53,577 nt of DNA from a virus (IMGVR_UViG_2541047877_000006), one strand, 5' to 3'. Shown: positions 3,969 to 51,470, counted from the stretch's first letter. The notes: a model not told the origin generated them from the sequence alone. Made by a program: numbers and translations.

Positions 3969-5087
3969 TTACAAAATGGAATATTCAGGGTAATAAACAA
4001 AGCGCCCGATTTCTCCATGATCCGGGCTGTAAATAATCACCGCTGCCAGCCGCCGCGACCGCCAACCACCATTCGTTGAATAAGCGTCTTTGCCAGCTAA
4101 CGTGCCGTGATACTCAACAACGCCTAACGATGACTCAATCAGCCGTTGATGATGCCAGTGCCCGCAATGAGCGTAAACAGCCGCAGATTTACCGAAATCT
4201 TCCCGCCAGTCAGATACGCAGGCCGCCAACAAGTTTTCCGGTTTTTTGATAGTATGACCGTGATGATATGCAAGGAATGTTTTGCCGTACTGTGTGTGGT
4301 GGACGATAGCAGGGGACACGTCAACCGTCACGCGCGGTTCATCTTCATAAAAAGCCGCCAGCGCCGCACGTAGCCAGATCATCCCTGATTGGTCGTGATT
4401 ACCGGATAATGTCTGGATCTCGACATCCTTATGATTTAGTAACATCTTCCCGACCGCACGCCGGACCGACCGGATCGCCACGTAAACCAGTTTTGCGTAG
4501 CGTGAATCGCAATCCAGGACGTGATTGCTTGATGGCGTCACTGGTAACAGGCCGTCAGTGTGAAGCACATCACCGCCGAGAAGTAAAACAGCCTTTTCAG
4601 ACATTGGCGCAGCGCCTACCGCGTAGTCGAAGAAATCATTTAGCACGCGTTCAGCGATCCCGGTGTCGTAGCTTTCGCCGCATTCAGCTTTATGAGCAAG
4701 CGCCCCGATATGTAGATCGAATACCGGATAAAGGGCCAGGCTTTTTTGGAAATCAATTTCCGGCACTGGCACGGCCTCCGCGCGTGGCATATCTTCCGTG
4801 AAAGCATCGCAAGCCGCTTGCATTAGCCTTTCCATTTCATCGCGATCACGGGCTGTTTTAATCCAGCGCATAATCACATTGCCATCCTTATCGACGAGCA
4901 AAGACTCACCATTGATGCCAAAACCAGGCGCGCGACGCGTGGATATTAAACCGCGCTTTGCCAATCGTGCGCCCAGGCGTTCGACGTTGCGTTTTGCCAT
5001 TCCATATTCTTCGGCTATTTGCTTGTAAGTTTTCCCATTGTTGTATTCAGCGATTAATTGCTCGTCGCTGATCTTTCTTTGCGACAT
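3969..5087 (-). CDS. HTH domain fused to calcineurin-like metallophosphoesterase
   Basis: N-terminal HTH (KTYKQIAEEYGMAKRNVERL); C-terminal motifs DLHIG, GGDVLH, GNHD, GHWHH (Mre11/SbcD-like set). Confidence 0.6.
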   Translation of the reverse strand: MSQRKISDEQLIAEYNNGKTYKQIAEEYGMAKRNVERLGARLAKRGLISTRRAPGFGINGESLLVDKDGNVIMRWIKTARDRDEMERLMQAACDAFTEDMPRAEAVPVPEIDFQKSLALYPVFDLHIGALAHKAECGESYDTGIAERVLNDFFDYAVGAAPMSEKAVLLLGGDVLHTDGLLPVTPSSNHVLDCDSRYAKLVYVAIRSVRRAVGKMLLNHKDVEIQTLSGNHDQSGMIWLRAALAAFYEDEPRVTVDVSPAIVHHTQYGKTFLAYHHGHTIKKPENLLAACVSDWREDFGKSAAVYAHCGHWHHQRLIESSLGVVEYHGTLAGKDAYSTNGGWRSRRLAAVIIYSPDHGEIGRFVYYPEYSIL

Positions 5088-5264
5088 AATGTTATTTCCT
5101 CCGGTTCACGGAATGAGTATTTATTCATAAAAAAACTAATTTTTATTAACATAGGTTTCACGGTGGCAAAAAATGCCAGTAGGGTTAATCAACAACTTAT
5201 GCAAATTGAAATAACTACTTAATGAATAACTAATCGTATACATTGTGGTTTACATTTTGTATAT

Positions 5265-6197
5265 TCATTGGCAGCAAACAATCTCTTTATATGCTTCTTC
5301 TACCATGTCGAATACTTCCGGCCTGTAATAAAAAAATTCATTGCTACCATCAAATTTTACAGTAAAGTTAATTTTATAATTGCTGAAATATTTATGCATC
5401 GTGCTTTCTAATTCTTGAACTTTTCCTGTTGGTCCTTCCCACGTCTTCACGATATGCAAATCATGGATTCTAACACCTGCTTTATGCGCGCTATTTAATA
5501 CCATATTTCTTCGCCTGTTCTCACTAACGCTCACGCCAATTTTCATCATCGTTGGCACTTCCAGATCATCAACCATGATGTAAATTTTTCCATACTCATG
5601 ACTAAGGAAACCGCTTTTCGCGCATTTCGGGCAGCCTTGCCCCTTTTTAAGGTTACTGGGTATAGCAGACCACTCATGACCGCAGACATTACAGCGGCAT
5701 AATACTTTTGTTGCGTTATTAACAATTTCGCCTATAACTTCAACATCAGGATTAACCTTCGCAATAGTCGCGATCTGTTCTTCGTGTGTTAAGGTTCTGA
5801 TTTGTGCTAGTTTTAAAGATTTACACTTCGGGCAGCCGTACCCACTTTTAAGGTTGTAAGGACTAACAGACCACTCATGATCACAAACTTTGCAGCGGCA
5901 CGGGACTTTATCCCTGGCGTTATTAACTTCCCCCAATACTTCAATATTTGGGTTAACTTTGGCTATATCTGCAATATGTTCTTCGTGTGTTAATGTTTTT
6001 TTTAACCTTGCGCATTTAGGGCAACCGTTCCCGTGTTTAAGGTTGTTAGGAGTAGCAGACCACTCATGATCACAAACTTTGCAGCGGCATGATACTTTTG
6101 TTGTGCTGCAGGTTACTTCCTCCAACACTTCAATATTTGGGTTAACTTTCTCAATAGCTGCAATTTGCTCTTCATGCGTTAACTTGCGTCTACCCAT
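5265..6197 (-). CDS. triple zinc-ribbon repeat protein with C-terminal T5orf172 (GIY-YIG-like) domain
   Basis: Three ~45-aa repeats LTHEE.IA.I.KVNP.IEV...CRCKVC.HEWS...GCPKC; C-terminal KIYIMV...KIGVS...ENRRR. Confidence 0.6.
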   Translation of the reverse strand: MGRRKLTHEEQIAAIEKVNPNIEVLEEVTCSTTKVSCRCKVCDHEWSATPNNLKHGNGCPKCARLKKTLTHEEHIADIAKVNPNIEVLGEVNNARDKVPCRCKVCDHEWSVSPYNLKSGYGCPKCKSLKLAQIRTLTHEEQIATIAKVNPDVEVIGEIVNNATKVLCRCNVCGHEWSAIPSNLKKGQGCPKCAKSGFLSHEYGKIYIMVDDLEVPTMMKIGVSVSENRRRNMVLNSAHKAGVRIHDLHIVKTWEGPTGKVQELESTMHKYFSNYKINFTVKFDGSNEFFYYRPEVFDMVEEAYKEIVCCQ

Positions 6198-6349
6198 AAT
6201 TCAACACCTCACAAATTACACAAAAACACTTCATACGCGCTACAACGCAAAAATTCCACCGCGACACCCGTTTGCACAGGTTGCAGTGTCTTATTGCGTC
6301 AGAGGCGCTATCAGGTGGCTAATTTTTGATTTACAGAATGGTAGGTGGG

Positions 6350-6451
6350 TTATGGATTGACTAGAAGGAACAAACCGCCGAACAAGGCGACGTTAACAGC
6401 GATTGCCGCAGCGATGGCAAAGGCCAGGGCGAAAACGTGTTTACCGTCCAT
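6350..6451 (-). CDS. small hydrophobic peptide (33 aa)
   Basis: MDGKHVFALAFAIAAAIAVNVALFGGLFLLVNP; GAGAGG SD 8 nt upstream. Confidence 0.3.
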   Translation of the reverse strand: MDGKHVFALAFAIAAAIAVNVALFGGLFLLVNP

Positions 6452-6583
6452 TTTAAAATCCTCTCTAAAACGCTCTATAACGAGCTAAACCGCTAAAGAT
6501 ATGAATCGTAGCACCATGCGTGTTTTAGCTCGCTGGTGAGGTTGTTTTGTGGGTAATTTTGGATTTTTGCGGATCGTGGTTGG

Positions 6584-49602: not shown

Positions 49603-51028
49603 TAATGCCGATCAGTTAAGGATCAGTTGACCGATCCAGTGGCTGTGTAAGAATCCGGAAACGCTCACTTGTTTCCGGATTTTTTTATGCACATTGGACA
49701 GGCTCTTGATCTGGTATCCCGTTACGATTCTCTGCGTAACCCACTGACTTCTCTGGGGGATTACCTCGACCCCGAACTCATCTCTCGTTGCCTTGCCGAA
49801 TCAGGTACTGTAACGCTACGCAAGCGCCGTCTTCCCCTCGAAATGATGGTCTGGTGTATTGTTGGCATGGCGCTTGAGCGTAAAGAACCTCTTCACCAGA
49901 TTGTGAATCGCCTGGACATCATGCTGCCGGGCAATCGCCCCTTCGTTGCCCCCAGTGCCGTTATTCAGGCCCGCCAGCGCCTGGGAAGTGAGGCTGTCCG
50001 CCGCGTGTTCACGAAAACAGCGCAGCTCTGGCATAACGCCACGCCGCATCCGCACTGGTGCGGCCTGACCCTGCTGGCCATCGATGGTGTGTTCTGGCGC
50101 ACACCGGATACACCAGAGAACGATGCAGCCTTCCCCCGCCAGACACATGCCGGGAACCCGGCGCTCTACCCGCAGGTCAAAATGGTCTGCCAGATGGAAC
50201 TGACCAGCCATCTGCTGACGGCTGCAGCCTTCGGCACGATGAAGAACAGCGAAAATGAGCTTGCTGAGCAACTTATAGAACAAACCGGCGATAACACTCT
50301 GACGTTAATGGATAAAGGTTATTACTCACTGGGACTGTTAAATGCCTGGAGCCTGGCGGGAGAACACCGCCACTGGATGATACCTCTCAGAAAGGGAGCG
50401 CAATATGAAGAGATCAGAAAACTGGGTAAAGGCGATCATCTGGTGAAGCTGAAAACCAGCCCGCAGGCACGAAAAAAGTGGCCGGGACTGGGAAATGAAG
50501 TGACAGCCCGCCTGCTGACCGTGACGCGCAAAGGAAAAGTCTGCCATCTGCTGACGTCGATGACGGACGCCATGCGCTTCCCCGGAGGAGAAATGGCGGA
50601 TCTGTACAGTCATCGCTGGGAAATCGAACTGGGATACAGGGAGATAAAACAGACGATGCAACTGAGCAGGCTGACGCTGAGAAGTAAAAAACCGGAGCTT
50701 GTGGAGCAAGAGCTGTGGGGTGTCTTACTGGCTTATAATCTGGTGAGATATCAGATGATTAAAATGGCGGAACATCTGAAAGGTTACTGGCCGAATCAAC
50801 TGAGTTTCTCAGAATCATGCGGAATGGTGATGAGAATGCTGATGACATTGCAGGGCGCTTCACCGGGACGTATACCGGAGCTGATGCGCGATCTTGCAAG
50901 TATGGGACAACTTGTGAAATTACCGACAAGAAGGGAAAGGGCCTTCCCGAGAGTGGTAAAGGAGAGGCCCTGGAAATACCCCACAGCCCCGAAAAAGAGC
51001 CAGTCAGTTGCTTAACTGACTGGCATTA
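49603..51028 (+). mobile_element. IS4 insertion sequence (1426 bp)
   Basis: 18-bp terminal inverted repeats TAATGCCGATCAGTTAAG / TAATGCCAGTCAGTTAAG (16/18); 12-bp target duplication; one transposase ORF. Confidence 0.85.
49687..51015 (+). CDS. insG: IS4 transposase (DDE, IS4 family)
   Basis: 442 aa from ATG 49687; IS4-family [16 protein letters not shown] signature; size matches IS4. Confidence 0.85.
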
Positions 51029-51040
51029 GGGCATAAGCCC
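51029..51040 (+). repeat. IS4 target-site duplication, right copy
   Basis: GGGCATAAGCCC followed by CGTTTTTTT, the distal half of the original terminator. Confidence 0.8.
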
Positions 51041-51060
51041 CGTTTTTTTATGCATTGTTT

Positions 51061-51306
51061 TTATTTTTTACACCCATCATTTACACCAGAAAAATGGATA
51101 GGTAAATTACATTCACTGTCAATAATTTTACCTTGTAGTTGTTTTTCTTTCCATGAGTCAGTATTGAAATAACTCGAACGTTGGTTATCAAGGCCAGTAT
51201 CACCATATTGAGCAGTGCCAGCATCACTCTTATCTGTCGAATTTACAGAAGCAAAAGCACCAAAAGACAGAGCTGATAAGATGCAAGCAACAATTAGTTT
51301 TTTCAT
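51061..51306 (-). CDS. small secreted protein (81 aa)
   Basis: Signal peptide MKKLIVACILSALSFGAFA; two Cys; between IS4 and tail-fibre gene. Confidence 0.45.
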   Translation of the reverse strand: MKKLIVACILSALSFGAFASVNSTDKSDAGTAQYGDTGLDNQRSSYFNTDSWKEKQLQGKIIDSECNLPIHFSGVNDGCKK

Positions 51307-51454
51307 TGTATTCACCTTACTGTTTGTTTTACTGTCATTTGTTGTTCGTGATGATCCACCCATCCGATGAGCAAATCACCGCAGAAGCTATCATTTCGTA
51401 TGTTGATATAGATCAAAAAATACATTATGTATAAGCCCAAAGTGTAACACAGAT

Positions 51455-51470
51455 TACAAAATGGTAGAAT
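51455..51470 (+). promoter_or_regulatory. TACAAAATGG element fused to extended -10 (TGgTAGAAT)
   Basis: GATTACAAAATGGTAGAAT about 35 nt upstream of tail-fibre start. Confidence 0.3.

Follow-up and report, generated by a model that had tools for sequence, protein, structure and literature searches.

Operators of the lambdoid phages (OL1-3 and OR1-3 in lambda), the targets of CI and Cro, are 17-bp pseudo-palindromes accompanied by the gene of a cognate repressor with a helix-turn-helix (HTH) and an S24 domain. They lie on the -10 element or abut the -35 element of promoters, neighbours being 24-27 bp apart, and the middle operator turns an imperfect half towards the -35 of the repressor promoter. 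Dispersed repressor sites are found in two other systems. In phage P1, ~17 asymmetric 17-bp operators of the C1 repressor are scattered over the genome, and in cluster A mycobacteriophages the stoperators bound by L5 gp71 are many short, asymmetric, intergenic sites distributed genome-wide. Here we analyse a 53,577-nt stretch of viral DNA (IMGVR_UViG_2541047877_000006, the whole of which is hereafter called the window), in which the 10-mer TACAAAATGG recurs. We consider it most likely that TACAAAATGG is the core of an operator bound by the lambda-CI-like repressor of this phage, Rep, and copied to a dozen or more promoters.

The window shares all of the lambdoid features named above, and its site type recurs unchanged in the lambdoid phages L and VT2-Sakai. 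It differs from them in lacking both cro and a canonical three-site OR beside the repressor gene; moreover, the six sites of phage L are all in OL and OR, whereas the ~20 sites of the window extend over 50 kb and include the late tail operon. The system of P1 is similar in that a single immunity repressor acts on numerous scattered promoters; its conserved site is largely asymmetric and in places forms inverted pairs. However, C1 is not of the CI/LexA type and binds as a monomer, whereas the repressor in the window is CI-like and its sites come from a palindromic family. Stoperators affect elongation and point in the direction of transcription, whereas both orientations occur in the window and most sites are at fixed promoter positions. 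P1 C1 operators and cluster A stoperators are the closest known functional analogues, both with unrelated repressors. Since VT2-Sakai is a close relative of phage 933W, although the two differ in immunity, 933W was also compared. This lambdoid Shiga toxin (Stx) phage has three rotationally symmetric operators in OR, and its 15-bp repressor site has G, A, A, and C at positions 2-5 (PMC3317979), not TACA, so that the sequence family differs from that of the window.

The window is 85-88% identical to Enterobacteria phage mEp021 and to Escherichia phages mEp010, 013, 044, 515, 554, and MagusPhagus. These phages form the mEpimmI group, and the window is a temperate coliphage belonging to it. The group comprises temperate, Nus-dependent, non-lambdoid coliphages of one immunity type, in which three nut sites have been mapped and the CI-like repressor Rep021 blocks infection by group members; in isolates from the human gut, their frequency was reported to be similar to that of lambdoid phages (PMC11893012).

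Results

Enrichment and anatomy of the element

The window was compared with dinucleotide-preserving shuffles (n=100). TACAAAATGG or its complement was present in 10 exact copies against 0.25 expected; the shuffle maximum was 2, and none of the 100 shuffles reached 10. When up to one mismatch was allowed, 26 matches were found against 5.7 expected. The 9-mer CATTTTGTA, with 16 copies, was the most over-represented A/T-rich word of the window. A first-pass annotation, made from the sequence alone, had reported at least nine exact copies. All nine were recovered at the reported coordinates and strands (3970+, 8114+, 8957+, 16387+, 16452-, 37973+, 37999-, 40978-, 51455+), but a tenth, at 40587-, had been overlooked. 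The variants named there are also present at 41049 (TACAAAATGT), 42573 (AACAAAATGG, reverse complement), and 42635 (ACCAAAATGG, reverse complement), as are the looser ones at 5252 (TACAAAATGT, reverse complement) and 6332 (TACAGAATGG). Exact and variant sites together amount to ~22 in the window and are mostly non-coding: 15 of the 22 are located in the 7.9% of the window left as non-coding by a deliberately generous gene call (binomial P ~3e-12), in agreement with the intergenic clustering noticed earlier.

Alignment of the sites revealed that the 10-mer is the core of a 17-bp pseudo-palindrome of the TAATACA-WWW-TGTATTA type, the full consensus being roughly (G/T)WATACA-WWW-TG(T/G)AWWn. A site of ~15-17 bp with partial two-fold symmetry is what is expected of a CI-type operator. 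Two classes can be distinguished. The asymmetric 'TGG' class, (g)T(T/A) TACAAAATGG (A/C), has ~15 members and is symmetric in one half only, whereas the palindromic class, ATA TACA-WWW-TGTA (T/A)A, has symmetric flanks and comprises the sites at 5252, 9636, 13034, 41049, 42609, and 51421. The G/C positions (TAC and GG) are conserved across the sites. Where asymmetric sites are paired, they invariably converge, TGG ends inward, and are separated by exactly 16 bp at 21701/21727 and 37973/37999 and by 55 bp at 16387/16452. Centre-to-centre distances are 24-26 bp at 8962/8987, 13038/13062, 21706/21731, 37978/38003, and 42614/42639, which places adjacent sites ~2.3-2.5 helical turns apart, as expected for pairwise cooperativity at CI-type operators. 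In structure, the N16 palindromes copy the inner pair of OR operators. Every site in them is centred at -41 of one predicted promoter and, at the same time, at -16 of the promoter that diverges from it. Sites of either orientation are found inside blocks of genes on one strand (3970+, 5252-, and 6332+ in a minus block; 13034- and 16452- in a plus block), and the single orientation relative to transcription that characterizes stoperators was not found.

Site type and repressor recognition helix in other phages

In a large protein collection, Rep homologues with 40-56% identity were found in Enterobacterales and Vibrionaceae. The recognition helix, T.G...HWLN.RRE, is invariant in homologues that are 42-56% identical overall, and an alignment of eight homologues showed invariance of T30, G32, H36, W37, L38, N39, R41, R42, and E43. 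We compared loci with the usual lambdoid switch, in which the homologue and a cro-like gene are divergently oriented, because the cI-cro gap of such loci is known to hold operators. A Rep-type helix faces cro in seven other lineages: prophages of Citrobacter (L150), Tatumella (L153), and Serratia (L156), two metagenomic phages (L154 and L155), Salmonella phage L, and VT2-Sakai. The site type fills the gap in all seven, with three copies in six of them. In six lineages the gap sites conform to TAC[AG]-N3-[TC]G[TG]A and are spaced 33 and 25-27 bp, and the middle site is exactly TACAAAATGG in L150 and L154. When the gaps of L150 and L153-L156 were shuffled (2000 per gap), at most one shuffle per gap reached three sites, against 0.04-0.08 expected. 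In phage L, located by tblastn, the gap sites are TACATTTCGTA, TACAATATGTG, and a third that falls within the annotated start of the repressor gene. In the VT2-Sakai-type Stx2 phage, also located by tblastn, they are TACAATATGTA, TACACATTGTG, and TACAGAGCGTA. The VT2-Sakai cI (L159, NC_000902.1 10900-11595) is annotated in two pieces, its frame stopping inside the recognition helix (GMT*GGIGHWL); the three intact operator-type sites adjoin this interrupted gene.

In a Vibrio homologue the helix is related but altered, and the gap contains two sites of the TGG type. A Salmonella homologue that shares the C-terminal domain but has a P22 C2-type helix has none of these sites in its gap, where P22-type operators are found instead. 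It was thus revealed that the site type tracks the recognition helix of the repressor in other phages.

A weight matrix was then built from 19 sites of five of these seven lineages only (consensus TAATACAATTTGTATTA). Applied to the window, this foreign matrix gave 24 matches against 7.0 expected (maximum 11 in 30 randomisations), including those at 3970, 5251, 8114, 8957, 9636, 13033, 16451, 37973, 37998, 41049, 42609, and 51421. On phage L, six of the eight matches are the three OL and three OR sites; at the phage L threshold, there were 27 matches over 50 kb in the window and 17 in the first 50 kb of mEp021. A/T-centred sites are likewise restricted to OR and OL in the Citrobacter prophage. 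The OL of phage L consists of TACATTTTGTA, TTGACG, a 17-bp spacer, and TATTGT, with a second TACATTTTGTA overlapping the -10, and the Serratia prophage OL has the same build of operator, -35, and operator on the -10. This arrangement matches PR, the tape-measure junction, and the tail-L junction of the window. In the relatives, the imperfect half of the middle operator (TGG or TGTG) faces the -35 of the repressor's own promoter, and the asymmetric sites of the window keep that orientation towards the promoter where they sit at -41.

Restriction to one phage lineage

A scan of related genomes, suggested by the first-pass annotation, detected 243 exact copies in 1.35 Mb of relatives. Among group members there were 174 copies in 44 rep-centred loci (0.21/kb) and 69 in 30 loci around tail gene M (0.13/kb). 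No copy was present in 857 kb from 50 other phages with M proteins of 66-71% identity, and none in 46 kb around three CI homologues with 38% identity; these three viral loci (L064-L066) had no repeated word of interest. mEp021 carries sites at homologous positions. Scanning IMG/VR for the N16 palindrome returned 18 contigs, all of which represent the tape-measure junction of this group; their left-hand cargo differs, while a 36-bp module is retained. The prophage is carried by 35 of 5426 complete E. coli genomes, with no well-studied strain among the carriers, and a Rep scan of one genome per species found no relatives. Since the whole immunity region is conserved across the group, phylogenetic footprinting of this region was uninformative.

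The open reading frame (ORF) in the 'cro position' (7634-7969, minus strand) is the N-terminal winged-helix domain of a replication initiator (phrog_4617). It was therefore rejected as Cro, and the present lineage is one without Cro. A sister lineage has a 55% identical Rep with an identical helix, the same gene order, and in addition a 75-aa HTH_3 Cro (L147 9649-9876). Its sites are likewise dispersed, with ACAAAATGG as the top 9-mer. It thus appears that this clade has multiplied the operator module found in ordinary lambdoid switches.

The restriction to one lineage counts against a general promoter feature and against a host-factor site in wide use among coliphages. It thus bears on the possibility that the element is read by a protein other than Rep, either a host factor working with CRP or another phage regulator. 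The TGG form does resemble a monomer or tandem site more than a dimer operator, the sites co-occur tightly with CRP-like sites, and another regulator may exist in a lineage without Cro. However, the ORFs scanned yielded no conserved DNA-binding regulator besides Rep, and a site for a host factor would be expected in other coliphages too. Across unrelated phages, moreover, the site type goes with the CI helix and disappears where that helix is different. We consider this explanation unlikely.

Rep and the immunity region

The cognate repressor expected of a CI-type operator, with both HTH and S24 domains, is encoded in the same element (Table 1). Rep aligned with lambda CI (3bdn) over its full length (E 1.4e-20), and its N-terminal 72 residues are 97% identical to the mEp021 repressor. 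The helix-2 residues that form the activation patch of lambda CI are acidic in Rep too (SQDSLAD vs SQESVAD). The motif is the sole word of at least 9 bases that is common to both control regions flanking rep. Sites overlap core elements of the predicted early promoters on both sides of the gene, at -16 of PL and at -41 and -16 of PR, and each predicted early promoter is followed by a nut site. At PR, the final two bases of the second site are the first two of the -10. An 8-bp inverted repeat, TTGACTCG / CGAGTCAA, was also found at 8968-9006; it is symmetric about 8987, the centre of the PR-proximal operator, and spans PR from the -35 to ~+4.

The weak operator-like site upstream of rep is homologous to CCATTTTGTG in L147. 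It precedes a candidate rep promoter that would start at or next to the ATG and would give a nearly leaderless rep mRNA, just as lambda cI is expressed from PRM as a near-leaderless mRNA. The Serratia relative has the same near-leaderless repressor promoter feature, with a perfect TATAAT.

Geometry on predicted promoters

The genes at 1-7969 are directed leftward and include those for DnaB, an O-like initiator, and accessory proteins. rep is followed by a rightward N-like gene (9345-9635), erf, ssb, abc2, and a Q-like gene (17921-18643); further on, the plus strand carries the genes for lysis, head, and tail. Three minus-strand cassettes interrupt the tail operon (Table 1). Since a generic scan for sigma-70-like promoters showed no overall enrichment (23 vs 39 expected; 26 vs 30), only tests of fixed geometry were used. 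Operator centres are given relative to a start site taken as 7 nt past the -10.

The abutment of the element on a -35 with 17-nt spacing, reported earlier for at least four cases, was confirmed. Four sites share the identical order of motif, one base, -35, 17 bp, and -10: 8957 (TTGACT/TATATT), 37999- (TTTACT/TATAAG), 40978- (TTCACA/TATATA), and 42635- (TTGATC/TATATT). Only ~0.04 such cases are expected among 22 sites, as estimated from hexamer match probabilities. Centres are at -41.0 and -16.0 for PR and for the leftward promoters of the tape-measure and tail-L junctions, and at -42 and -17 for the 21.7-kb promoter. A site at -16 or -17 alone is found at PL, the pre-nutR2 promoter, the rightward tail-L-junction promoter, and 51455, and a site at -41 alone at the promoter of the toxin-antitoxin cassette. 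In the -16 placement, the site overlaps the -10 by two bases, its end coinciding with the start of the hexamer (CCATTTTG|TAnnnT). When the two most divergent junctions were aligned, the predicted hexamers were nearly invariant and the spacers varied.

This geometry also allows an assessment of the 'UP-like element' of the first-pass annotation. According to this explanation, RNA polymerase itself would read the A-tract as a proximal upstream-promoter (UP) subsite for the alpha C-terminal domain, possibly with CRP at -61. The motif is indeed at the proximal UP position (-46 to -37) in five promoters, with CRP-like sites ~20 bp upstream in several cases, and ACAAAATGG matches seven of the nine positions of the AAAAAARNR consensus. 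An UP element would, however, be A/T-rich and degenerate, confined to the region upstream of the -35 (-38 to -59), and not specific to a lineage. Instead, in nine or more predicted promoters the element is inverted and has its centre close to -16 or -25, its TAC and GG are conserved although an A/T-rich minor-groove site needs neither, it is absent from the 857 kb of other phages with related tail genes, and the identical site type fills cI-cro gaps elsewhere, where operators are expected. A polymerase-read element is thus quite improbable. The other suggestion of that annotation, a regulator site common to the promoters, is supported and can be made more specific: the element is of the type that serves as operator for the family of CI-like repressors that includes Rep.

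The sites are also found at the junctions of differently oriented blocks, and the cargo at the tape-measure junction varies while its 36-bp module is kept. Both observations could be explained if the element were a recombination or boundary sequence for the exchange of accessory cassettes. Such a sequence should be present at both cassette ends, but the element occurs only at the promoter end, the distal end being a terminator. Moreover, sites are located at PL, PR, and nutR2, where nothing is exchanged, and their position relative to the -35 and -10 is fixed to the base. A site-specific recombination junction, as had been proposed, is therefore hardly credible. The conserved module beside variable cargo may nonetheless have a passive role as a homology patch.

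A Q-binding element was rejected because the sites are also present at early promoters. By-eye comparison with the sites of the host regulators TyrR, OmpR, PhoP, CpxR, EvgA, NarL, GadE, Fur, LexA, sigma-54, and sigma-28 showed that none fits, and full-text literature searches for the motif returned unrelated primers only.

CRP-like sites and other features of the window

Sites close to the CRP consensus TGTGA-N6-TCACA lie beside the operators with zero to two mismatches, two of them being perfect. Relative to the predicted starts, five of them, including that of PL, are centred at -59.5 to -63.5 and one at -70.5, close to the class I positions of -61.5 and -71.5. The half-sites of those at 16405 and 42654 are conserved among relatives while the N6 varies; at 41004, the TGTGA half alone is well conserved. 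This pattern suggests cAMP-CRP control of much of the phage.

The operator at 40977-40987 lies also in the spacer (centre -25) of a predicted rightward promoter with an invariant TATAAT (40995-41000). On the 3' side of this TATAAT and before tail gene M, a boxA-like ATCTTATTTTT is followed by a hairpin, CGCG-TAGAAG-CGCG (41015-41045). The segment, which resembles the nut sites of the phage, is kept in 25 distinct relatives and may represent a fourth nut-like site beside the three published.

The region 21680-21940 appears as a self-contained cassette just ahead of the lysis genes, with a CRP site, two operators, a promoter, the 46-aa ORF, and a terminator (21919-21938). At the matching place mEp021 has a different gene set and no motif copy with up to one mismatch. 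The copy at 40587-40596 is retained in 12 related loci and scored 16.3 with the foreign matrix. The site at 51455-51465 abuts an extended -10, TGGTAGAAT. A conserved leader, ATA TACAAAATGT AAAC..GGAG..ACATTATG, precedes differing small or accessory genes at 9636-9660, in the 5252 region, and in related loci, as if a ready-made module of operator and translation start travelled with the cassettes.

Table 1. Positions of the repressor gene, operator-type sites, predicted promoters, CRP-like sites, and cassettes in the window
Feature	Position	Strand	Remarks
rep	8197-8844	+	CI-like repressor, proposed binder; HTH_3 and Peptidase_S24 (Pfam)
PL operator TACAAAATGGA	8114-8124	+	centre -16 of predicted PL
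Predicted PL (leftward early promoter)	-10 TAAACT 8110-8115; -35 TTGATC 8132-8137	-	nutL downstream, ~8000-8037
Weak operator-like CACGTTTTGTG	8149-8159	-	foreign matrix score 9.1; ~-41 of candidate rep promoter
Candidate rep promoter	TTGCAT 8162-8167; TATAGG 8183-8188		15-bp spacer
PR operator TACAAAATGGA	8957-8967	+	abuts predicted PR -35; centre -41
Second PR operator TACGGGGCGTA	8982-8992	.	centre -16; 25 bp from the -41 site; conserved in relatives
Predicted PR (rightward early promoter)	TTGACT 8968-8973; TATATT 8991-8996		
Exact copy	3970-3979	+	between ORF 3969-5087 and dnaB (2529-3950); no convincing promoter nearby
Palindromic-class ATATACAAAATGTAAAC	5252-5261	-	between two minus-strand genes; foreign matrix score 17.1
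Variant TACAGAATGG	6332-6341	+	between terminator 6374-6391 and accessory gene 5265-6197
Palindromic-class site	9636-9645	+	directly 3' of the N-like gene, ahead of a small ORF
TACATTTTGTA and TCCGTTTTGTA	13033-13043 and 13057-13067	.	24 bp apart, ahead of gene starting at 13108
Exact copy	16387-16397	+	-80 of predicted promoter ahead of nutR2
Exact copy (reverse complement)	16451-16461	-	centre -16 of predicted pre-nutR2 promoter
Predicted pre-nutR2 promoter	TTGTTT 16438-16443; TATACT 16460-16465		nutR2 boxA starts at ~16480
Convergent pair TACGAAATGG-N16-CCATTTTGTT	21701-21736	.	-42 and -17 of predicted promoter for 46-aa ORF 21776-21916
Convergent pair TACAAAATGG-N16-CCATTTTGTA	37973-38008	.	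between minus-strand cassette 36879-37923 and tape-measure gene; -41 and -16 of predicted leftward promoter
Predicted leftward promoter, tape-measure junction	TTTACT 37992-37997; TATAAG 37969-37974		
Exact copy	40587-40596	-	within ParE-like toxin gene 40480-40734
Operator	40977-40987	-	-41 of predicted leftward toxin-antitoxin promoter (TTCACA 40971-40976, TATATA 40948-40953)
Palindromic-class TACAAAATGTA	41049-41059	.	just 5' of tail gene M ribosome-binding site
Variant AACAAAATGG	42573-42582	-	leader of minus-strand operon with ANT-domain gene
TACAATATGTA and ACCAAAATGGA (reverse complement)	42609-42619 and 42634-42644		centres -16 and -41; flank -35 of predicted leftward promoter
Predicted leftward promoter, tail-L junction	TTGATC 42628-42633; TATATT 42605-42610		
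TACATTATGTA and exact copy TACAAAATGGT	51421-51431 and 51455-51465		between gene 51061-51363 (-) and gene 51504-53300
CRP-like site	8156-8171		-60.5 from predicted PL start
CRP-like site	13011-13026		no defined position
CRP-like site	16405-16420		-59.5
CRP-like site	21680-21695		-60.5
CRP-like site	38015-38030		-60.5
CRP-like site	41004-41019		-70.5
CRP-like site	42654-42669		-63.5
Tail-operon cassette	36879-37923	-	VasI-like and small lipoprotein-like gene
Tail-operon cassette	40480-40907	-	ParE-like toxin and partner
Tail-operon cassette	41784-42555	-	carries ANT-domain gene
Bidirectional terminators	36856-36872, 40398-40420, 41632-41652		distal cassette ends

Discussion

The present results argue that the recurrent element is the operator of Rep. 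Several points weigh against this assignment. All promoters are predictions from hexamers, and no convincing promoter was found at 3970, 9636, 41049, 42573, and 40587. The outer palindrome alone, GTTTAC-N5-GTAAAC, is not enriched in the window (34 vs 24 expected). In ~15 sites TGG replaces TGT and the adjoining half-site is not conserved, which is odd for a symmetric dimer; a degenerate half-site would not call for such strict conservation of the asymmetry. That the middle operator of the relatives is imperfect in the same way explains this only in part. Since the strong site of PR is the one at -41 and the site at -16 has a G/C-rich centre, repression of PR rests on an unproven weak site. Finally, the 2025 description of the group names no operators and does not mention the motif (PMC11893012).

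The sequence comparisons show that the sites exist, are over-represented, are restricted to one lineage, hold set positions on predicted promoters, and accompany this recognition helix in other phages; that Rep physically binds them, that the promoters are active, whether a given site represses or activates, and any part played by CRP are inferred. In a lysogen, Rep dimers would occupy the sites. A dimer centred at -16 would occlude the -10 and the spacer, block RNA polymerase, and repress the promoter. A dimer centred at -41, abutting the -35, would help to fill the -16 site 24-26 bp away; neighbouring lambda operators are spaced 23-24 bp. At a lone -41 site, the dimer might contact region 4 of sigma in the manner of lambda CI at OR2/PRM, resulting in activation. 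Such PRM-like activation would fit the toxin-antitoxin promoter and possibly the weak 8149-8159 site before rep. The two-operator module, which related lambdoid phages have only at OL and OR, would have been copied to at least a dozen places, among them PL, PR, the pre-nutR2 promoter, the cassette promoters at 13.0, 21.7, and 51.4 kb, and the three tail-operon junctions. One repressor would thus control the whole prophage, silencing PL, PR, the nutR2 promoter, and several cassette promoters. More speculatively, the promoterless sites (3970, 9636, 41049, 42573, and 40587) could be roadblocks or looping partners.

A wider reading is possible, although we lean slightly towards doubting it: a two-operator OR/OL module would be present at a dozen or more promoters, including those of late-tail cassettes, mostly paired with CRP sites and in a lineage without Cro, and ~20 matched operators would explain the single immunity group of the clade. 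It is plausible that the clade, which is of family level (9 genera, 45 species), has a single immunity type because ~20 sites must stay matched to one repressor. If this reading is true, the prophage would be a single repressor- and cAMP-gated regulon.

An operator for CI is of a classical kind, while the site type in phage L and VT2-Sakai is apparently undescribed in the papers searched. What is new is the assignment of an operator to the mEpimmI group, together with a dispersed layout that reaches into cassettes and may be coupled to CRP. The analysis provides an operator consensus and a map of ~20 candidate sites for a group whose repressor operators had been left open. If the map holds, a lambda-like switch has been extended into a genome-wide silencing network that would reach a toxin-antitoxin pair, an antirepressor-like operon, and lipoprotein and VasI-like genes. 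Prophage expression would then be tied to the catabolite state of the host through CRP, and the fact that so diverse a clade has one immunity type would find a simple explanation.

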